Positions 25,839 to 39,505 of a stretch of 64,000 bases of DNA are shown here, in pieces. A program made the translations under genes and the position numbers. Under the pieces are notes generated by a model. That model saw only the letters and a program-made list of their open reading frames with translations. It had not been told where the DNA came from and made no database searches. Source of the stretch: an uncultured Gemmatimonadales bacterium (GTDB taxonomy: Bacteria > Gemmatimonadota > Gemmatimonadetes > Gemmatimonadales > Gemmatimonadaceae); NCBI GenBank assembly GCA_963701965.1, contig OY969695.1, positions 2,080,001-2,144,000 on the forward strand, given 5' to 3'. Positions within the stretch are counted from its first letter, which is position 1, and each line of letters starts with the position of its first letter.

Positions 25839-27641
25839 TTACGCTTTCGCCAGATCCCGGACGGAGGCCGCCATCAGGGCCACGCGACGGGGGTCGGGCG
25901 AACCCGCCCTGTCGCTATCCAACTGCGTCGCGAGCTGGTTCAACGCGTCGGCCCGCGCCTGCCCCTTGAGCTTCTCGGCCGCGTCGAGCGCTTTGGCGAT
26001 CGCCGTCCGCCGTTCGGCCGGCAACCCGTTGTTTCGACCGAGTTGGTCGAGATACGACCGCGGCACGGCGAAGATCGCCGGCCACACCAACCGCGGTTGA
26101 TCCTGCACGTTGAGCCACTGGAACCGCACGGCGTTCGCCGCGTCGATCTCGTTCTGCGAGAGGTAGGCGCTGGGCTTGAGCGCGAACATGTCGAGTCCGC
26201 GCGTGATCTCGGAGCCGACGATCAACCCGTTGTACCAGTACACGGACCAGTAGCCCGCGAGCACGAGCTTGGTCGAGTCCATCGGGCCACGGTCGAAGTA
26301 CGCGATCTCCTGGACATGGGTCGGATCGGTCCAGTCGAAGACGGAGATGCCGCCCTGATACCAACCCTGGACCATGACGTCGCGGCCGGGGATCGGGATC
26401 AGCGAGCCGTTGTGCGCCACGCAATTCTTGAACGCCGACTGCGTGACCGGGAGCTTGTAGTAGCCCTTGAACGTCATCGAGCTGCCGGCCAGCGTGTAGA
26501 ACGCGTCCGCGCCCCACATCGGGTTGTCCCCAGGCCGGCACCGGGGCTGGGCGCCGCCGCCCCACTCGTCGGAGAACAGGATCTTGGAGCCGTCGTTGTT
26601 GAAGGTCACCGAGTGCCAACCCGAGAAGTTCGTGTCGGTGACGGCGCCGATGCGCGTCGGGTGCGCCGGATCGCGAATGTCCATCAGGATGCCGTAGCCA
26701 CCGCAGGCGCCACCGGCCAACCCGATCGCCGGGTAGGCCGTGATGTCGTGGCATTGGGTCGGTCCCGACGGGGGCGGCATCTTGATCTGGAACTTCGCCA
26801 GCAGCGCCGCGAACTCGATCGAGTCGGCCTTGCTCTCGTGGTGGCGCTGGGCGGCCACCAGATCCTGGAAGACGCGCGGCGACGAGACGATGTGCGCTTG
26901 CTCGGGATGCGCCACGGGGATCTGGATGACCTCGAGGCGGAACAGCGCCGTGTTGGGATCTTCCGTGACCGTGCCGCCGGTGCATCCGGGCAGCTCGCTC
27001 GCCGAACGGACGGTCGAGGAGCCGGACACGTAGATGTAGACGTTGTTGTTGTCGTTCGGGTCGGTCACCAGCGTGTTGGTGTGCGACCCGCGGCAAGTTT
27101 GGACGACCTTGATCGGCTTGGGATGCGTGATGTCGGTGATGTCGAAGATCCGGATGCCGCGCGCGCGGTCATGGCTCACGGTGTCGGTCACACCCTGCAC
27201 GCCGCAGTCGACGCGGCCGCTGGTGGCCTCGGCCGACACGAACATGAGGTTGCCGTACACAGTGACGTCGCTCTGGGAGCCGGGGCACACGTAGGCGGCC
27301 TTGAGCGTGACTTCGGTCGGCGTCGAGATATCCCAGACCTGGTACCCGCTGTAGTTGCCCTGAATCACGTAGTTCCCGAGGAACGCGAGATCCGAGTTCA
27401 CGAGGCGGTCGGCGCCGGGTTGCGCGCGGTCAATGAACTGCGCCGAGGGCGGCGTCAGCGAGACCGTCTTGAGATTCCAGATCGCCTCGCCGGCGTCAAA
27501 CCATCCGCTTTTCAGGTTGAGCCGGGGATCCGGCGTGGGTGCCGTCGCCGACATGTCGGACGATGCCGTGTTGTGGCCCGTCGCACACGCCGCGGCGGAG
27601 AGCCAGCCCAACGTGAGGAGCAATGAACGAGAGGGTTTCAT
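25839..27641 (-). CDS. LVIVD-repeat secreted lipoprotein (copy 1)
   Basis: Lipobox [38 protein letters not shown]. Confidence 0.8.
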
Positions 27642-27656
27642 GAAGAGATTGGGTGG

Positions 27657-28265
27657 CTAGTGTTCTTGCATCGTGGACTGGAGCATGAGGAGCATCCGAT
27701 TGATCTCGGCGGTCTGATCGGCGCCGACATCGGAGGCGAACTTGAACACGACTTCGTCCTGCGCGGCGCCCTCGGACGAAAACAGCGTATGCACCATTTC
27801 GAGCGCACCCTGGTGGTGCCGGATCATGTAGCCGAGAAACAGACGGTCGAAGTCCGGACCTTGAGCGTGGTCCAGCTCCGTCATCTGTTCCGGGGTCAGC
27901 ATGCCCGGCATCAAATTGCCGGGACCCATGTCCATACTCATGCGGCCGTTCGCGTCCGGCACCATCTCGTGCCGATCGCGCAACCAGCGCTGCATCGATG
28001 CGATTTCGTCGCGTTGGGACACCACGATGCGGGCACAGAGGACTTTTACGGCGTCACTGGCCCCGTGCGTGGGCGCCCAATTGCCCATGATGATGGCCTG
28101 GGCGTGGTGGCCGATCATGCCCTGCATGAAGTTCACGTCGGCCGCGGTGTACTTGGGCAACGCCGTGCCGGGATTACTCGCCGCCAGCTGGGCGCGCGCG
28201 CCCGACACCGCTCCTGACCCCATGATCGCGGCCGCCAATGCCGCCGCGACAAATTTTTGCGTCAT
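27657..28265 (-). CDS. DUF305 ferritin-like protein (copy 1)
   Basis: FMQGMIGHHAQA, Met-rich loop, MIRHHQGA. Confidence 0.9.
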   Translation of the reverse strand: MTQKFVAAALAAAIMGSGAVSGARAQLAASNPGTALPKYTAADVNFMQGMIGHHAQAIIMGNWAPTHGASDAVKVLCARIVVSQRDEIASMQRWLRDRHEMVPDANGRMSMDMGPGNLMPGMLTPEQMTELDHAQGPDFDRLFLGYMIRHHQGALEMVHTLFSSEGAAQDEVVFKFASDVGADQTAEINRMLLMLQSTMQEH

Positions 28266-28336
28266 GCCGTGCTCTCCGGTTCGCGCCATTGTAGCGCAGA
28301 ACTGGTGAGTTAGCGAGACTCTCGCGAAGAGTTGAC

Positions 28337-30731: not shown

Positions 30732-31835
30732 CTACGGTTTCTGCACAGTATCCCGCCACCACCGCTCCAGATCACCCGCGTATTCCGGAAGTTGGGCCCG
30801 CATGAGCCCCAACACGCCACTGCTATCGACGGGCGCGGCGAACAGCGCGCGCAAGCCGGCGATGCCGCGATGCTGATACACTCCGCCAACGAACAAGGCT
30901 CCCGTCGCATAGAGCGCGTCGGCTTCGCCCGGTCCCGATCCGGAGTACGGCACCAGGTCCGAGAGGTGCGCGGCGGGGTGCGCGCGCTGGTACTGGCGCA
31001 GCAGCACGACCATCTGATCGCGGTCCCGGCCTTTGGAGCCGGCGAACCACGTGGCGAAGCCCTCGTTTACCAGTTGCGAGTGACTCTTGGCCGCCCCCAA
31101 GGTCGCATGCACCAGCTCATGGAGATAGCCGTCGCCGAGCACCGGATCGCCCGAGAGCACGATGCCCGCGGGCAGCGCCTGACCGCCGAGGCCGGACGTC
31201 GGACCGGATGGGAGTGGGAAGAAATCGAGCCCCAGGATCCGTTGGTAGTCCTCGGCCGACGCCGTGACGTAATACCGGAGCGAGTCGGGCGGCTGAATGG
31301 CAAAAAGGGTCGCGAGGGAATCGATGAACCGGCCGGCGCGCGCGACCGCCTCGGGATGCACGCGCTGCCCGGGCTGGTACCAATACGTGATGCGCCCCGC
31401 GCGATGCTGCTCCCAACCCCGCGTCTGTCGCGGCAACGCATTGCTCAACGCCCACGCGCCGCGCTCGCGCACGGCGTAGAGGCGCTCGAGAGCGAGCGGA
31501 TACACCCCAGTGCTCTCCGCCTTCGCGTACAGGATCTTCACCACGTACGTCGTGTCGCCCGGCGTGGTCCCCACGACGCCGAGAATGGTCGCGGGGAATC
31601 CCTGACGGACCAGCGTGCACGTCAGGTCCCCGTATCTCCGATCGATCGGGTCCCGCCTGCTCCACCGGTCGCTCTCGCAGCCGGGATGCTGGAGATACGC
31701 GCGAACCATCGGCACGATCGCGCCGACGTCGGCGGCCGTCGTGTCGACGCCAAAACTGAGACCGACCGACGGCGCCGGCTCCTGCGCCGCGATCGGCCCG
31801 GCGACGACGACGGCCGCCAGCCAGAGGGTCCGCAC
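30732..31835 (-). CDS. Secreted putative gluzincin (peptidase MA-like) protein
   Basis: Signal peptide from GTG 31835; HELVH followed by NEGFATW. Confidence 0.6.
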   Translation of the reverse strand: MRTLWLAAVVVAGPIAAQEPAPSVGLSFGVDTTAADVGAIVPMVRAYLQHPGCESDRWSRRDPIDRRYGDLTCTLVRQGFPATILGVVGTTPGDTTYVVKILYAKAESTGVYPLALERLYAVRERGAWALSNALPRQTRGWEQHRAGRITYWYQPGQRVHPEAVARAGRFIDSLATLFAIQPPDSLRYYVTASAEDYQRILGLDFFPLPSGPTSGLGGQALPAGIVLSGDPVLGDGYLHELVHATLGAAKSHSQLVNEGFATWFAGSKGRDRDQMVVLLRQYQRAHPAAHLSDLVPYSGSGPGEADALYATGALFVGGVYQHRGIAGLRALFAAPVDSSGVLGLMRAQLPEYAGDLERWWRDTVQKP

Positions 31836-31865
31836 GACACGGATGTAGCTCGGGGAAACGGCGCG

Positions 31866-31903
31866 CGCTAGTTCTGTCCGCTGACCGTCGCGCGGACGAG
31901 CAG
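31866..31903. repeat. Direct repeat, left copy: degenerate duplicate of the ECF sigma 3' end
   Basis: cgctagttctgtCcgctgaccgTCgcgcggacgagcag versus 34643-34680 cgctagttctgtGcgctgaccgCTgcgcggacgagcag. Confidence 0.9.
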
Positions 31904-32037
31904 GATGTCTTGTCGCTGGCGTTGTGTGCGAGCTGGTCGAGCGCACGAGCAGGGCGGTGAGCGACCTGCCGCCATTTGGTATCACCCCATTCTTGTTGTC
32001 GTCGGCGCGGCTCGATCGCGAAGGCGCGCCACCCCGC

Positions 32038-32862
32038 TCAGGAGAACAATGGCGAGCCCTGTAGCTGCAACACGTCGCCGCCATCGAGATGAAGGACCAT
32101 CTCGATCTGTCTCTTCTCGTTCTTCTTTTTGGGCAGCTCTTGCACGTCGATGGCCGTAATACGCTGTCCGATCGCGCGCTCGAGCTCTGCCTGGACTGAG
32201 AGATCACGGTAAGCGAGCGTGCGCGCGAGCTTGTACCGGAGCACGCTCCGACTCGACTCACTCAGAGTCGCCAGATAGCGCGAGTCGGTCAGCAGCTGGC
32301 GCGACACGACACCCGTCCGATTGATCGCAACCGCGCCCGCTGGCACCGCAGGGTTTCCCGCAGGCACGGGGAAATACCCGCTGCGTAAGCCTCGTTGCAC
32401 GTCCAACAGTCGCTCGGGTGTGCGGAGCTCGTGTGGCCAGTCCTCCTGGATCTCGGCCGCCGTCAGCAACGGTGCAACGACAATCCATTGATCGGCATCC
32501 TCTCGCATCCCAGCTTGTTCAGTCGCTTCCGATTCCGACATACCGTTGCGTGTGAGGAAGCGCACCAGTCCATTGAAATCCTTCTCCATCTCGCACTCGT
32601 GGCTCAGCACCATCACCGGCCCCCAGCGAACCAAGTGAGCCGCGTGGGGGACCATGCTGGTGGTGGGCGGGGGAGACCACAACGGATACGTGGCTGCCCG
32701 GCCTAGATCCGCCTGTGCATCCAGTGGCGGTGGGACCTGCGCGACCAACGCCGAGTCGGCCTGACCTGGCACGAGGGCGCTTGTCGGACACAGGAACAGG
32801 TCGCCCTGGACCAGTACCTCGTGGCGAGGGCCGAAGTACTCGTTGAACTGCGGGACGTCCAC
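32038..32862 (-). CDS. Hypothetical protein with a PemK/MazF/CcdB-like motif pattern (candidate toxin)
   Basis: QGDLF...PVMVLSHEC...IVVAPL...AVAINRTGVV...LATLS...LRYKL. GTG 32862 sits 1 nt after the upstream stop; alternative start 32922. Confidence 0.55.
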   Translation of the reverse strand: MDVPQFNEYFGPRHEVLVQGDLFLCPTSALVPGQADSALVAQVPPPLDAQADLGRAATYPLWSPPPTTSMVPHAAHLVRWGPVMVLSHECEMEKDFNGLVRFLTRNGMSESEATEQAGMREDADQWIVVAPLLTAAEIQEDWPHELRTPERLLDVQRGLRSGYFPVPAGNPAVPAGAVAINRTGVVSRQLLTDSRYLATLSESSRSVLRYKLARTLAYRDLSVQAELERAIGQRITAIDVQELPKKKNEKRQIEMVLHLDGGDVLQLQGSPLFS

Positions 32863-32863
32863 G

Positions 32864-33748
32864 TCAGCGTCGACGGCGCCGCGAGGGACGAGGACCCTCG
32901 GATTCCTCCGGCGCGTTGTCACCCCCGCCTAACACCGCCATCCTCGACCACGTCAGGTCCCCTGGCTCCCGATCCTCCTCCGTCCCCGACGTCGTCGTCG
33001 CTCCGAGCCGCCGTCCCGTCCGACTGGCGACCGGCGATGTACTCGCACGGTCCGCGATCAACGTCCGCAGGTTGTCGAAGGGACTGGGCGAATGCCGGAC
33101 ACCACGCGACCATTCAATCGCAGTCGCTATGGCATCAATAGCCGCGCCTATCGCCCGCGTATTCCAACGCCGGGCTGACAACAAATCCAGGAGGGTCGCG
33201 CCGGCCGCAAGTGGTGTCACGAGATACACGCCCACCGGCTCTGCCGATCGGTTCGCCCATCGGGTCGCGAGGTTCGCCAAGGCTCCCAATCGCCGCTGAT
33301 ACTGCATCCTCGGCGACGCCGTATTGTCCTGCCACGCATATAGCGTCGTGCGCGCCACCCCAACGACATTCGCCAGTTGAGTCATCGTTAGTGACAAGTG
33401 CTGGCGAACGTGGTCGATGCGCGCCGATACCGACAGGTCGAACTCGACCGGCCGAGTGAGTGCCGGGAAAGTTGGGTGTGCGCTTCCGGAGTGGACAGCC
33501 GCGACGTCTAGCACAGTGATGACCGACCCGGTCGCTCCCGGTCCCCACGCCACCAATGCGTTGGGCGCATAGAGCGTCCCGCCTGTGCCAATGCTGAACA
33601 TCCCGCGAAAACTGGAACCCCACGCCAGTGCGCCTCGGATCGCCGGCGGCGTTCGAGACCCCGTCGGGACTGTCAGCGAATGTGGACCTGGGAACTCAAC
33701 GCACTCCTCAAACGCCTCACCGGTGTGGCCTACGACGATCGCGTTCAT
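32864..33748 (-). CDS. XRE-like HTH protein with long low-complexity N- and C-arms (candidate antitoxin)
   Basis: IDHVRQHLSLTMTQLANVVGVARTTLYAW HTH; ATGA overlap with the upstream gene. Confidence 0.7.
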   Translation of the reverse strand: MNAIVVGHTGEAFEECVEFPGPHSLTVPTGSRTPPAIRGALAWGSSFRGMFSIGTGGTLYAPNALVAWGPGATGSVITVLDVAAVHSGSAHPTFPALTRPVEFDLSVSARIDHVRQHLSLTMTQLANVVGVARTTLYAWQDNTASPRMQYQRRLGALANLATRWANRSAEPVGVYLVTPLAAGATLLDLLSARRWNTRAIGAAIDAIATAIEWSRGVRHSPSPFDNLRTLIADRASTSPVASRTGRRLGATTTSGTEEDREPGDLTWSRMAVLGGGDNAPEESEGPRPSRRRRR

Positions 33749-34539
33749 ACGCGCCCCGCTCCGACCGGCTCCCATAGCTCTCGCGCGTACGATGTCGTCG
33801 CTTGCTGGAATGCGCTGCTCAGTGCCTCGTGCAACTCGCCGGTCACATTGACGACCGCGTCGACGTCAAAATCGATCGATCGGTCGGTGAAATGATCGAA
33901 GTCGAGGGTGACGCTACGTGTTGTTCCGAGCAAGGGATCAAATGCCAACGTGCTCGGCTGAAGATCTGCCGGTAGGAATTGCGGTGACGGTAGCTGGTAA
34001 CAGCGCACCGCCAACGTGCCAACAGCCGTCTGCGCCAGCGATTCCGTGCGGAACCCACGCACTCCGTCGGATTGGATCGCCAGTCCGCTGAACGCGAACC
34101 CCAATAACTCTCGCGCGACGTATCGATCGAACGACTCGTCTGGCTTGACGCGGACAAGGTCGACATAGCGCAACCCGACGCGCTCCACGAGCGCACCTGC
34201 CGCGGGTTCAGCGATCGCCTGCAGCGCCAGGCGCAGGCCCTTGGCGAAGACGTCGTACGATTCGTACTGGCTCGTTGAAAGTGCGAGGGTGCTTTCTGTC
34301 AGCGTAATCCCGACGTTCTTGTCCCGATTCAGGAAATCCCATCGACTTTTGGTGCTGATCGATGGCGCATTCCCTCCGCCGACCCGAACAGTTGCGATCT
34401 CACCCTCCAGATAGCGCGGGAAACCATTCCCTTGGAACTCATGCTGGATCTTCGGAAGCTGTTTCTTGAGTGTCAGCACAGGCGTAAACGCAACCTGTGC
34501 AACAACATAGATAACTGGCGGGTGGCGAAGCCTGGTCAC
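33745..34539 (-). CDS. TIGR04255-like sporadically distributed protein
   Basis: LRHPPVIYVVAQVAF, LSTSQYESYDVF, RVGLRYVD, LDFD; family recognised from memory of the motif pattern. Confidence 0.75.
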   Translation of the reverse strand: MTRLRHPPVIYVVAQVAFTPVLTLKKQLPKIQHEFQGNGFPRYLEGEIATVRVGGGNAPSISTKSRWDFLNRDKNVGITLTESTLALSTSQYESYDVFAKGLRLALQAIAEPAAGALVERVGLRYVDLVRVKPDESFDRYVARELLGFAFSGLAIQSDGVRGFRTESLAQTAVGTLAVRCYQLPSPQFLPADLQPSTLAFDPLLGTTRSVTLDFDHFTDRSIDFDVDAVVNVTGELHEALSSAFQQATTSYARELWEPVGAGRV

Positions 34540-34642
34540 CGTATCTCTTGAAAAGTGTACGCAAAACCTAACACCAAAACCGACACTTGGACAGACGAGA
34601 AATGGGCGGCTGATGTTTCACCACGGCCTGCCCGAGCAACGT

Positions 34643-34680
34643 CGCTAGTTCTGTGCGCTGACCGCTGCGCGGACGAGCAG
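34643..34680. repeat. Direct repeat, right copy (last codons of the ECF sigma gene)
   Basis: Matches 31866-31903 at 35/38 nt and includes the TAG stop of the sigma gene. Confidence 0.9.
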
Positions 34681-35910
34681 CAGGTCCCGCTCCCGGACGT
34701 TGCGCGTCATCGACGCCGCCCGCTCGAACTCGACGCGGGCTTCCCCGTGCCGGCCGAGCTTGGCGAGGAGATCGCCGCGGACGCTCGGCAACAGGTGGTA
34801 GCTGGCCAGCGCGGGCTCGGACGTCAGCTCATCGACGATCTCGAGACCCGCCGCGGGCCCGAACGCCATGGCGATGGCGACTGCGCGGTTGAGCGCGACG
34901 ACGGGGCTGGGAAGGAGCTGCGCGAGCGCATCGTACAGCGCCGCGATCCGCTGCCAGTCGGTCTCGTCCGCCGTGCGCGCCCGCGCGTGGCACGCCGCGA
35001 TCGCCGCTTGCAATGCGTACGGTCCCAGCGCACCGCCCAGCGCTTCGGCGCGCGCCAGCGCCGCGAGACCCCGATGGATCAGCACATGGTCCCACCGCGC
35101 GCGGTTCTGGTCGAGCAGCAAGATCGGCTCTCCCGACGGCCCCACGCGCGCCTTTGACCGCGACGCCTGGATCTCCATGAGCGCGACCAGCCCGTGGACC
35201 TCCGGCTCCCGCGGCACCAGCTCGGCCAGCACGCGACCCAATCGCAGCGCGTCTTCGCACAACCCGGGCCGCATCCAATCATTGCCCGCGGTCGCCGAGT
35301 ATCCCTCGTTGAACACGAGATAAACCACTTCGAGCACCGAGGAAAGCCGCGCCGCCAACTCGGCGCCCCGCGGCACCTCGAACGGGACGCGGGCCTCGGA
35401 GAGCGTCCGCTTCGCCCGCACGATCCGCTGGGCGATGGTCGACTCCGCCACCAGAAACGCCCGCGCGATCTCGTCGGTCGTGAGACCGCCGAGCAACCGC
35501 AGCGTAAGCGCCACGCGCGCCTCCGTCGACAAGACCGGGTGGCACGCCACGAACATCAGTCGCAGCAAGTCGTCTCCCACGTGATCATCGATCGCGGCGT
35601 CGAGTGCCGGCTCCGGCGTCTCCTGCCGCGCCTCCATCTCGTGTCCCAGCTGCTCGTGCTTCCGCTCCAGCAGCTGACGGCGGCGTACCGCGTCGATCGC
35701 CCGGTGTTTGGCCGTGGCCATGAGCCAGGCGCCCGGATTATCCGGGACGCCCGTCTCCGGCCACCGCTCCAGCGCCGCCATCAGGGCGTCCTGCGCCAGA
35801 TCCTCGGCCAGCCCGACGTCGCCCACCATCCGCGCGAGCGCGGCGATGAGCTTCGCCGATTCGATCCGCCACACCGCATCGATCGCGCGGTGGGTATCGT
35901 GAGCTCCCAC
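34645..35910 (-). CDS. ECF42-type sigma factor (sigma70-ECF + DUF6596/TPR extension)
   Basis: AEDLAQDAL, GAWLMATAK, DDLLRLMFVACHP, YLVFNEGY, GPYALQAAIAACH; preceded by DGPF genes. Confidence 0.93.
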   Translation of the reverse strand: MGAHDTHRAIDAVWRIESAKLIAALARMVGDVGLAEDLAQDALMAALERWPETGVPDNPGAWLMATAKHRAIDAVRRRQLLERKHEQLGHEMEARQETPEPALDAAIDDHVGDDLLRLMFVACHPVLSTEARVALTLRLLGGLTTDEIARAFLVAESTIAQRIVRAKRTLSEARVPFEVPRGAELAARLSSVLEVVYLVFNEGYSATAGNDWMRPGLCEDALRLGRVLAELVPREPEVHGLVALMEIQASRSKARVGPSGEPILLLDQNRARWDHVLIHRGLAALARAEALGGALGPYALQAAIAACHARARTADETDWQRIAALYDALAQLLPSPVVALNRAVAIAMAFGPAAGLEIVDELTSEPALASYHLLPSVRGDLLAKLGRHGEARVEFERAASMTRNVRERDLLLVRAAVSAQN

Positions 35911-36747: not shown

Positions 36748-36774
36748 GTCGAACGAGAGGGAGCAAAATCGACA
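36748..36774 (-). promoter_or_regulatory. ECF42-type promoter TGTCGA-N17-CGAC
   Basis: Minus strand reads TGTCGAttttgctccctctcgttCGAC, about 35 nt upstream of the first DGPF gene. Confidence 0.75.
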
Positions 36775-36818
36775 TGACCCGCTTACCAGCCCAGTCCGCC
36801 GTCGATAGTATTACGTTT

Positions 36819-37496
36819 ATGCTGAAATCCGCCTCATACGCGGCCGTGCTCGCTTTGGTCGCGGCGGCCTGCAGCAGTGCAGGTATGCGGCCATCGACCC
36901 AACCCGGTCCGGCCGCGCCATCGCAAGCCGCGGGAAACCCCGCTGGCATCGCCCAGGCGAGGGCCGATAGCGCCCGCCTTCCATATACCAAGGCGGACAT
37001 CGACTTCATGTCGGGCATGATCCATCACCATGCCCAAGCCATCGTGATGGCCAAGTGGGCCCCGACGCACGGCGCGAGCCCGTCCGTGCAAACGCTCTGC
37101 GAGCGGATCATCAATGCGCAGACCAATGAAATCGCCACGATGCAAACCTGGCTGCGCGACCGCGGGCAGCCGGTCCCGGAGGCCACCGCCAGCGGCATGC
37201 CCATGATGATGAACGGGTCGATGCAGAACATGCTCATGCCCGGCATGCTCACGGCCGACCAGATGAAGGCGCTCGATGCGGCGCGAGGCGTGGACTTCGA
37301 CCAGCTGTTCCTCACCGACATGATTCAGCACCACAAAGGCGCCGTCTCGATGGTGCACGATCTGTTCGAGACCCAGGGCGCCGGCCAGGATGAGGCCGTG
37401 TTCAAATTCGCATCCAATGTGAACGTCGATCAGACCACCGAAATCGACCGCATGGAGCGGATGATCGTCGCGATCAAGCTCGGCATCACGCAGTGA
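36819..37496 (+). CDS. DUF305 ferritin-like lipoprotein (copy 2)
   Basis: AAAC lipobox; FMSGMIHHHAQA, GMPMMMNGSM, MIQHHKGA. Confidence 0.9.
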   Translation: MLKSASYAAVLALVAAACSSAGMRPSTQPGPAAPSQAAGNPAGIAQARADSARLPYTKADIDFMSGMIHHHAQAIVMAKWAPTHGASPSVQTLCERIINAQTNEIATMQTWLRDRGQPVPEATASGMPMMMNGSMQNMLMPGMLTADQMKALDAARGVDFDQLFLTDMIQHHKGAVSMVHDLFETQGAGQDEAVFKFASNVNVDQTTEIDRMERMIVAIKLGITQ

Positions 37497-37519
37497 TCAC
37501 CCCCTCGGAGAGATCCTCA

Positions 37520-39505
37520 ATGGTACCTCGCTCGTCTTTTACTCTCGCTGCCGCGCTGCTCGCCGTCGCGGGCTGTAGTCACTCCATGGCCTCCGCGGGT
37601 TCGGAGAGCCCCGCGCCGAGCAAGGGCGGCTACGATATGTCGACCAAGGCGCCGAGTCCCGATCCGCGCGTCGGGCTCAAGGCCGGCAAGTACGACGCCG
37701 CCGAAGCCAAGTGGAACCTGCACGTGGTGTCCGAAACCCGGCCGTCGACCAAGTTCGTCGACGTCACGAACTCCGACATGGCGTTCTCGGGACAGTACGT
37801 CATTCAGGGGAGCTACGCGGGCTATCAGGTGTGGGACATCAGCGACCCGAAGCAACCCACGCTCAAGACGGCGTACTACTGCCCGGCCTCGCAGAGCGAT
37901 GTCTCGGTCTACAAGAACTTGCTGTTCGTCTCCGCCGAAGCCCCGACGGCGCGCCTCGACTGCGGCAGCGAAGGCGTGAAGGACACGGTCAGCAAGGAGC
38001 GCATCCGCGGCATCCGGATCTTCGACATCACGGACATCACGGCGCCGAAGTACCTCACGAACGTGCAGACCTGCCGCGGCTCCCACACGCACACCGTGCT
38101 CGTGGATCCGAACGACAAGGAAAATATCTACGTCTATATCTCGGGCTCGGCGGGCGTCCGGTCGCCGAACGAGCTCGCGGGCTGCTCCGGCGCCCAGCCG
38201 GGCGAGGATCCGAACTCGGCGCACTTCCGCATCGAGGTGATCAAGGTGCCGCTCGCGCACCCCGAGCAGGCCGCGATCGTCTCGTCGCCACGCATCTTCA
38301 ATGACCTCGCCGCCGCGCCGACACACGGGATAACTAACGTAGACGCCGTCGCGCTCAGCGATGCCAAGGCCAAGGGCGCGTTCGTCGCCCACATCCGCGG
38401 ACAGGATTTTCAGCTCCCCGACCCGATGGCCGCGCAGCTCCTCGGCGATATCGTCAAGGCGCGCGGCGGCAGTGGGGCGCCGACGCACGCCGACAGCACC
38501 GAGCTGCACCAGAACCTCGATCCGATCGTCCGGAAGCGGTTCGGCTTGCCGGCCGTCGACCCGCCGCGCACCGGTCCCGACCAGTGCCACGACATCACCG
38601 TGTATCCGCAGATCGGACGCGCCGGCGGCGCCTGCGAGGGGTACGGGATGCTCCTCGACATTCGTGATCCGGTGCACCCGCGCCGCCTCGCCGCCGTGTC
38701 GGACTCGAACTTCTCCTACTGGCACTCGGCGACGTTCAACAACGACGGCACCAAAGTGCTGTTCTCCGACGAATGGGGCGGCGGCGGCCAGCCGAAGTGC
38801 CGCGCCACCGATCCGCACCAGTGGGGCGCGGACGCGCTCTTCACGATCCAGAACGACCAGATGGTGTTCCAGAGCTACTACAAGATGTCGGCGCCGCAGA
38901 CGAAGTATGAGAACTGCGTCGCGCACAACGGCTCGCTGATTCCGATCCCGGGCCGCGACGTCATGGTCCAGGCGTGGTATCAGGGCGGCATCTCGGTCTT
39001 TGATTGGACCGACGCCGCGCACCCGCGCGAGATCGCGTTCTTCGACCGGGGCCCGGTCGACTCGACCCGCATGGCGGGCGGTGGATCCTGGTCGGTGTAC
39101 TGGTACAATGGCGTCATGATCAGCTCCGAGATCTCGCGCGGACTCGACATCTTCGAGCTCCAGCCCAGCGGCTTCATTTCGCAAAACGAGCTGGATGCGG
39201 CGAAGACGGTGCATTTCGCCGAGCTCAACGTGCAGGACCAGCCCAAGTTCGTCTGGCCGACGACGTTCGTGTTGGCCCGCGCCTACACCGATCAGTTGGA
39301 GCGGTCGGGCGGTCTTTCGTCCGGTCGCGTCGCGGCCGTCCGGTCGGCCCTGGCCGGCGCCGAGAAGGCATCCGGCAGCGCGCGCAGCACCGCGTTGACG
39401 CAGTTGGCATCGCAGCTGGACGGCAATGCGGGCAGCTCGAAGGACGGAGGCAAAGTGCAGATGTTGTCGGCCACGGTGAAAGCCCTGGCGGCGTCGTCTA
39501 ACTAA
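37520..39505 (+). CDS. LVIVD-repeat secreted lipoprotein (copy 2)
   Basis: VAGC lipobox; same motifs as 25839-27641 plus an internal insertion. Confidence 0.8.
   Translation: MVPRSSFTLAAALLAVAGCSHSMASAGSESPAPSKGGYDMSTKAPSPDPRVGLKAGKYDAAEAKWNLHVVSETRPSTKFVDVTNSDMAFSGQYVIQGSYAGYQVWDISDPKQPTLKTAYYCPASQSDVSVYKNLLFVSAEAPTARLDCGSEGVKDTVSKERIRGIRIFDITDITAPKYLTNVQTCRGSHTHTVLVDPNDKENIYVYISGSAGVRSPNELAGCSGAQPGEDPNSAHFRIEVIKVPLAHPEQAAIVSSPRIFNDLAAAPTHGITNVDAVALSDAKAKGAFVAHIRGQDFQLPDPMAAQLLGDIVKARGGSGAPTHADSTELHQNLDPIVRKRFGLPAVDPPRTGPDQCHDITVYPQIGRAGGACEGYGMLLDIRDPVHPRRLAAVSDSNFSYWHSATFNNDGTKVLFSDEWGGGGQPKCRATDPHQWGADALFTIQNDQMVFQSYYKMSAPQTKYENCVAHNGSLIPIPGRDVMVQAWYQGGISVFDWTDAAHPREIAFFDRGPVDSTRMAGGGSWSVYWYNGVMISSEISRGLDIFELQPSGFISQNELDAAKTVHFAELNVQDQPKFVWPTTFVLARAYTDQLERSGGLSSGRVAAVRSALAGAEKASGSARSTALTQLASQLDGNAGSSKDGGKVQMLSATVKALAASSN

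Follow-up and report, generated by a model that had tools for sequence, protein, structure and literature searches.

What does a compact operon of three genes do in a genome where it stands apart from its neighbours? The operon lies on the minus strand of a 64,000-nucleotide stretch of contig OY969695.1 from an uncultured Gemmatimonadales bacterium; the whole stretch is referred to here as the window. The original prediction regarded it as a candidate toxin–antitoxin–chaperone (TAC) or anti-phage system. The three genes are the following.

33745..34539, minus strand: gene 1, TIGR04255 family, GTG start at 34539, 264 amino acids; candidate guard or sensor
32864..33748, minus strand: gene 2, ATG start at 33748 (frame open from 33775), 294 amino acids; candidate antitoxin and autorepressor
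32038..32862, minus strand: gene 3, GTG start at 32862, 274 amino acids; candidate toxin

The tight coupling of the genes was found as predicted, namely an ATGA overlap of genes 1 and 2 at 33748-33745 and a TGA-c-GTG junction of genes 2 and 3 at 32866-32860. The predicted contrast in codon usage was also seen: the G+C content at third codon positions was 0.68, 0.71, and 0.75 in genes 1, 2, and 3, compared with 0.82-0.90 in 12 flanking genes. We conclude that the cassette is real, conserved, tripartite, toxin–antitoxin-like, and apparently undescribed. It is horizontally patchy: cassettes of this kind were met in several bacterial phyla, and the family of the third gene varies between them. A toxin–antitoxin-like trio, the predicted MazF fold of gene 3, and the occurrence of the trio elsewhere are all supported, and an operon of the toxin–antitoxin type is highly probable.

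The assignment of gene 1 to TIGR04255 held at 119.9 bits against a curated cut-off of 30, with model positions 1-252 covered. Homologous loci were examined in a metagenome set consisting of the best 80 of 371 matches to the gene 1 subfamily, using profiles trained on other loci. All 61 loci with at least 800 nucleotides downstream had a helix-turn-helix (HTH) gene next to gene 1, and all 36 loci with at least 1800 nucleotides read TIGR04255, HTH gene, and a related SxxCD-type MazF-like gene, which shows that the trio is conserved elsewhere. This canonical third gene encodes approximately 270 amino acids, has no name in the libraries, and shares the SxxCD core with the gene 3 family. The two families aligned with an HH probability of 95.5% (E 1.6e-8) or, when a deeper alignment was used, of 71% (E 3.7e-5); a first metagenome scan with gene 3 itself gave no matches. 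The canonical third gene (as at L110:5461-6264) has a C-terminal domain of about 120 residues that is unlike that of the window and carries invariant Cys-Asp and Arg. Directly beyond another canonical trio, on the opposite strand (L051:7287-8923), lie DUF6527 and DUF6791-ThiF genes, a possible second conflict system.

Gene 1 was also found on 12 plasmid records, and the six that were opened all showed the same gene order; they belonged to Gammaproteobacteria, Alphaproteobacteria, Cyanobacteria, and Deinococcota, that is, to three phyla. Viral carriers were scarce, with only six viral-contig loci and two phage records. Of 301 genomes sampled from the phylum, 38 carried TIGR04255, as did 23 of 301 from an actinobacterial class. 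The third gene in 30 loci of the phylum was MazF-like in 14, belonged to a second family in nine, and was of another type or missing in seven (one RES), a classification that is partly circular because the profiles were built from some of the same loci. Among 27 loci of the actinobacterial class, 14 were MazF-like by profile, 12 had no profile assignment (seven of these showed a similar motif order by eye), and one lacked a match to the gene 1 profile. PADLOC gave no match for the sister third genes, except for one DUF3800 neighbour. Since the head of the cassette, gene 1 with the HTH gene, stays while the effectors change, gene 1 should act on gene 2 and not on the toxin.

Several further effector types stand behind TIGR04255 genes. 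Nine loci (L015, L016, L027, L030, L033, L034, L035, L038, and L039) have genes of about 160 and 135 amino acids after TIGR04255, and the shorter product, representing the second effector family, keeps an invariant Arg, Ser, and Arg-His. We take this family to be ADP-ribosyltransferase-like (ART-like) from motif resemblance, for which sequence searches of Pfam, PHROGs, NCBIfam, and the PDB gave no support. In L031 and L032 (L058:5609-6736), TIGR04255 is followed by a gene of about 210 amino acids and then by a 167-amino-acid gene matching phrog_10743 (E 6e-31). The pair after TIGR04255 at L222:834-1480 on the minus strand may be HicAB-like (HicB, then HicA), judging by its motifs. The window's own genome holds a second TIGR04255 trio at G000:C1:2407096-2408936 (L070:7097-8934), near a type IV secretion system (T4SS) coupling gene and an AAA_15 ATPase; it consists of a TIGR04255 gene (106 bits), a 124-amino-acid gene without an HTH match, and a 215-amino-acid SxxCD-type gene matching phrog_4575.

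A profile search with gene 3 collected 141 cluster representatives as homologues, and its neighbours in the Atlas were unnamed clusters of 191 and 106 members. No match of useful E-value was obtained for gene 3 in Pfam, NCBIfam, PADLOC, or PHROG, and only one of 99 family members touched PF02452 (E 3.9e-4). Meanwhile, the predicted structure (pLDDT 93.9) bore out the MazF/CcdB fold claimed from the motif order: the best match was 4mzm (Z 11.4, root-mean-square deviation (rmsd) 2.9, 113 of 115 residues aligned), all ten matches at Z≥8 in the VIA structure search were MazF, CcdB, or Kid proteins (Z 8.5-11.4, residues 15-220), and every row listed by Foldseek was a MazF-family protein. The two insertions and the extra C-terminal segment could likewise be recognised in the model, in which residues 220-274 form a separate small domain of a helix and three strands. 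Its structural matches were weak; several were double-stranded RNA-binding domains (Z 3.3-3.7, not significant).

To compare active sites, the gene 3 family was aligned with 25 ordinary MazF sequences (alignment probability 43%, E 2.5e-4). In gene 3, the positions of MazF's catalytic Arg and Thr, as given in an excerpt of PMC10893535, are taken by G81 and L133, and the family columns hold G/A/S/T and L/V/I, so that Arg and Thr are not conserved. Instead of this pair, the family has a conserved His-x-Cys; it keeps C90 (97/99), H88 (88/99), K94 (87/99), N97 (86/99), and R219 (90/99). Because the catalytic Arg and Thr are missing, RNA cleavage of the MazF type is not to be assumed for gene 3. The MazF fold, as predicted, holds, but MazF chemistry does not, and the clan of gene 3, going by the predicted structure, has a MazF fold that Pfam fails to recognise and a candidate active site unlike that of MazF.

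The description of gene 2 as an XRE-type HTH protein with long arms also stood: it has a long N-terminal arm, the HTH, a helical domain, and an unusually long C-terminal tail. The HTH match itself is weak, the best Pfam E-value being 3.6e-4, under the cut-off, and the PADLOC matches of gene 2 (RmrA/mad1) arise through the HTH only. Among 50 aligned homologues, R133, Y137, and W139 are conserved. Two features of this protein are of importance here.

33317..33418, minus strand: helix-turn-helix of gene 2, residues about 111-144; library matches all below curated cut-offs
33578..33589, minus strand: GTGG motif of the gene 2 arm, residues 54-57; candidate docking site for gene 1

The arms of the gene 2 family are 72-123 residues long and otherwise unalignable. 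In spite of this, G[TS]G[GSA] occurs in 34 of 52 arms (shuffles gave a mean of 1.9 and a maximum of 6), and in 24 of them the motif is exactly GTGG. These 24 cases are preceded by a hydrophobic 10-mer, with a mean of 2.0 compared with 0.03 over whole arms. It should be noted that the sequences are related and hence non-independent, so the motif points to conservation rather than function. As a short motif that persists in an arm without fixed structure, and always in a gene adjoining gene 1, it would nevertheless be the best clue to the client of gene 1, and action of gene 1 through the arm of gene 2 is slightly favoured.

The structure predicted for gene 1 (pLDDT 94.1, built from 49 sequences) is a two-lobed saddle, in which a curved beta-sheet is backed by helices and a strand-helix-strands-helix unit occurs twice; we take this order to be the TBP-type topology. 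An internal repeat was not detectable by sequence comparison (probability 0.2%), and the two-lobe reading therefore rests on the secondary structure of the model. Y92, R120, R124, R179, D213, D215, and F244 are near-invariant. No solved structure reached Z≥8 against the model in the VIA search. The best full-length rows were guanido kinase catalytic domains, namely the McsB kinase domain 8wtc (Z 7.6, rmsd 4.1, 178 residues aligned), 4wo8 (Z 7.3), and others, followed by TBP (Z 6.7), while a search of viral structures gave one unnamed partial match (TM 0.46) and TBP-like proteins. A prediction of the complex between gene 1 and residues 24-82 of gene 2 scored 0.35, 0.23, and 0.25 against a mark of 0.32.

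These rows suggest that gene 1 could be an enzyme or a sensor binding nucleotides or nucleic acids, and not a holdase, which modifies Thr/Ser of the gene 2 arm or senses a ligand. The charged R120, R124, R179, D213, and D215, conserved at 98-100% and placed on the central strands, are what one would sooner expect of an active site or a ligand site than of the surface of a general chaperone, and the arm motif is centred on Thr/Ser. Yet a Z below 8 means a possibly common arrangement by the tool's own scale, and a sequence search found no solved relative of gene 1. Homology to McsB (an ATP:guanido phosphotransferase) was not supported, as profile comparison with 30 McsB sequences gave a probability of 0.3% (E 0.2). 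We consider the enzyme or sensor reading unlikely.

The explanation that we prefer is a tripartite type II toxin–antitoxin module in which gene 1 guards the arm until a competitor, likely phage-derived, appears. Gene 3, a predicted MazF-fold protein, would be the likely toxin, and gene 2 its likely antitoxin and the autorepressor of the operon. The C-terminal part of gene 2 would hold the toxin, whereas gene 1 would bind the GTGG-bearing N-terminal arm and keep gene 2 stable. The competitor would displace the arm from gene 1, leading to loss of the antitoxin and release of the toxin. Most likely, gene 3 would cut RNA via a remodelled site of His88, Cys90, Lys94, and Arg219 instead of Arg/Thr, with a CcdB-like non-nuclease action about equally probable. 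Taken as a whole, this chain of steps is put slightly below even.

An anti-phage role of the cassette is probable, and the support for it is indirect. A mobile-element or defence-type neighbour was found in 12 of 28 long loci (73 of 126 picked open reading frames scanned), a count that comes without a control set. The part of Table S4 of the DefensePredictor study that was available lists at least eight TIGR04255 proteins as putative novel defence genes with log-odds of 4.7-9.3 (PMC13092281). Together with the effector exchange, these scores point to conflict with phage. The same wiring could serve an addiction or stress module with no anti-phage role, spreading by stabilising mobile DNA. This would fit the patchy distribution of TIGR04255 in the two sampled groups, the plasmid carriers, the integrases, transposases, and T4SS coupling gene that adjoin some loci, and the description of mycobacterial TAC as stress-responsive in an excerpt of PMC6377645. 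The few viral carriers fit both views. However, repeated effector exchange and the DefensePredictor scores favour phage conflict over a pure addiction module, which we regard as a doubtful alternative.

The window copy itself looks like a mosaic when the sequences of its relatives are compared, since its gene 3 subfamily usually pairs with a small partner in two-gene loci. Eight of nine genome records with relatives of this subfamily are from Gemmatimonadota, and in seven of the nine loci the subfamily gene follows a small gene of 87-136 amino acids. No TIGR04255 gene lay directly upstream in any of the five loci with enough DNA (the other four end too near the gene for an upstream call), so the subfamily does not need gene 1 everywhere. 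In seven loci (L061, L062, and L064-L068), the subfamily and a small unannotated partner with an Arg-rich tail form apparent two-gene modules, a candidate toxin–antitoxin family; the partner may be Phd-like, a resemblance that sequence searches of Pfam, PHROGs, NCBIfam, and the PDB did not support. The gene 2 protein can be aligned to the canonical HTH family but extends 105 residues beyond the last conserved motif, compared with 51-70 residues in 49 relatives.

32867..32983, minus strand: C-terminal extension that gene 2 has and its relatives lack; weak resemblance to the tail of the small partner

The extension scored 5.2 bits against the tail of the small partner, a level reached by three of 200 shuffles and by one relative out of 52. 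With a longer profile and no composition correction, the score was 10.2 bits, equalled by none of the 52 relatives and by 10 of 1000 shuffles; when the Arg run was kept, 35 of 1000 shuffles were as high. With composition correction the score fell to -1.2, and 41 of 52 relatives were as high. A chimeric origin of the tail is suggestive only. Two loci of the actinobacterial class, L197 and L205, likewise combine TIGR04255 with an HTH gene and a protein resembling gene 3 (E 1e-17 and 3e-12), so the combination in the window is not unique. On another reading, the tail of gene 2 and gene 3 work as a two-gene toxin–antitoxin pair that joined the cassette only recently, gene 1 being a passenger, or gene 3 is no toxin. 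This is quite unlikely, in spite of the small partner, the extra tail, and the missing Arg/Thr, because none of the three coupled open reading frames is broken, the family-invariant residues are retained in gene 1, which has relatives at 74% and 56%, and the same three components are joined in another phylum.

Several observations weigh against the guarded-antitoxin module as set out above. The claim of a SecB-like chaperone was weakened: gene 1 matched no Pfam family at E≤1, hence not SecB (PF02556), its 264 residues are modelled as a two-lobed saddle, and the gene order is the reverse of that in TACs; SecB was also not among the rows listed in the Foldseek and VIA searches. None of 49 gene 1 homologues matched a system model in PADLOC-DB 2.0.0. 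The arm in the window is less hydrophobic ahead of GTGG than the family (0.43 compared with a mean of 2.0). In none of the 36 metagenome trios was the gene 3 subfamily of the window the best match, and to this are added the five loci lacking an upstream TIGR04255 gene and the substitutions at the MazF catalytic positions. The circularity in the third-gene classes and the neighbour count without controls count in the same direction, and no integrase or known defence gene was found among the flanks in the window (ECF sigma, YciI-like genes, and ABC permease).

The predicted direct repeats around the trio were confirmed, and the boundaries of the island are as follows.

34540..34642, minus strand: T-rich intergenic stretch 5' of gene 1; presumed promoter/operator region, from sequence
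34643..34686, minus strand: direct repeat copy 1, which is the very 3' end of the ECF sigma factor gene (final codons with the stop)
31866..31909, minus strand: direct repeat copy 2, a degenerate copy of the 3' end of the ECF gene, identical at 39/44 nucleotides

The second-best site for this 44-nucleotide repeat in the 5.1-Mb genome matched at 29/44. The ECF gene, which carries a DUF6596 domain (Pfam), is widely conserved across 40 related genomes. Among the DNA-level matches listed for these same genomes, none at E≤0.001 covered the trio, save for one 41-nucleotide fragment in G014. Same-genus relatives have a different gene 3' of the ECF gene. An empty site was not found, as two low-share DNA comparisons gave only short stretches of identity, none of which bridged the island. 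Because it contains no integrase, the 2.8-kb interval looks like cargo left at a gene end. No tRNA genes were found within the window, and no sigma-70 consensus was found upstream of gene 1 at 34540..34642.

Imperfect inverted-repeat-like segments lie just inside the island ends (31953-31973 and 34600-34621), the former of which also forms a hairpin with a terminator-like score on the plus strand. Just downstream of the island, at 30732-31838 on the minus strand, is a 368-amino-acid gene with a HELVH (HExxH) motif and only a weak NCBIfam match (E 0.23); it was not found beside the ECF gene in nine related loci. Two paralogous gene pairs in inverted orientation (25839-28289 and 36774-39505; DNA identity 71-77%) bracket the region, each consisting of a gene of about 210-240 amino acids and a lipoprotein-like gene of about 600-670 amino acids; we take these to be DUF305 and LVIVD genes.

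As already proposed from the sequence, the cassette apparently corresponds to no named system: neither gene 1 nor gene 3 matched PADLOC 2.0.0, and the literature searched yielded no description of it. TIGR04255 had no main-text mention in that literature, with subscription papers and newer DefenseFinder models outside the search; neither had IPR026349 and CHP04255, which we take to be its other identifiers. TIGR04255 occurs in about a tenth of the genomes of the two sampled groups and has no described function in the literature searched. If it guards antitoxins, it would be a modular sensor of phage that does without SecB, and a function could be given to many three-gene operons that at present lack annotation. 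There is a fair chance that the cassette defines a new class of guard protein. Only tentatively can a broader view be put forward, in which TIGR04255 would be a second, SecB-unrelated class of toxin–antitoxin guard whose TBP-like saddle grips the GTGG arm on interchangeable antitoxins, so that in many phyla a single phage-sensing switch would control no fewer than three or four effector families without mutual relation, namely remodelled MazF, RES, ART-like proteins, and MBL nucleases; the window would then represent a toxin swap, the new toxin bringing its own neutralising tail.

Of the known systems, TACs (HigBAC, MqsRAC, and CmdTAC/PD-T4-9) share with the window three coupled genes, and the trio is likewise tricistronic. 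According to the available parts of 10.1101/2024.02.24.581848, PMC11618068, and PMC6377645, they also have an antitoxin with a long unstructured extension, and a single accessory family works with toxins of different origin. Excerpts of the first two sources state that, in TACs, the antitoxin loses the chaperone to a competing phage protein. In contrast, the accessory gene is third in TACs and first in the cassette, and the accessory protein in the window has 264 amino acids, no SecB Pfam match, and a predicted TBP-like saddle. The antitoxin motif is a C-terminal ChAD in TACs, whereas the candidate site in the cassette is an N-terminal hydrophobic run with GTGG. The predicted toxin fold is that of MazF, a term absent from the available text of the preprint 10.1101/2024.02.24.581848. 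Because gene 1 fails the SecB sequence test, the cassette is not filed as a TAC, though it may work similarly; in a published table, a CmdC-type protein matches PF02556 at 99.8% by HHpred, which is more sensitive than the Pfam scan applied to gene 1.

MazEF, PemIK, and CcdAB (PF02452 fold) resemble the window in that the modelled core of gene 3 superposes on MazF, Kid, and CcdB and that the antitoxin candidate precedes the toxin candidate. They differ in that gene 3, with 274 amino acids, has large insertions, an extra C-terminal domain, and no catalytic Arg/Thr, and is partnered by an XRE-type HTH protein. DS-42 (PRO1) of the DefensePredictor study likewise has three genes, encoding a 238-amino-acid hypothetical protein, a 190-amino-acid protein, and an effector, and reduces infection by Bas1 by about 1.1 log, the plaques being small (PMC13092281, in part). 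Its effector is an MBL hydrolase instead of a MazF-fold protein and its second gene has no HTH listed; by its table description, DS-42 could be distantly related, with the MBL hydrolase as its effector. GajC of Type II Gabija (Liu-DS1), as described in an excerpt of PMC13069673, resembles gene 3 in its split MazF-like domain with a helical insertion in an anti-phage system, but its partner is a UvrD helicase, with no HTH or TIGR04255 gene. The hyperpromiscuous Panacea/HTH antitoxins (NetFlax; PMC10440598, in part) belong to two-gene systems with no separate third protein, but they resemble the cassette in having a fixed antitoxin/sensor domain that changes its toxins and may gain linear neutralising tails.

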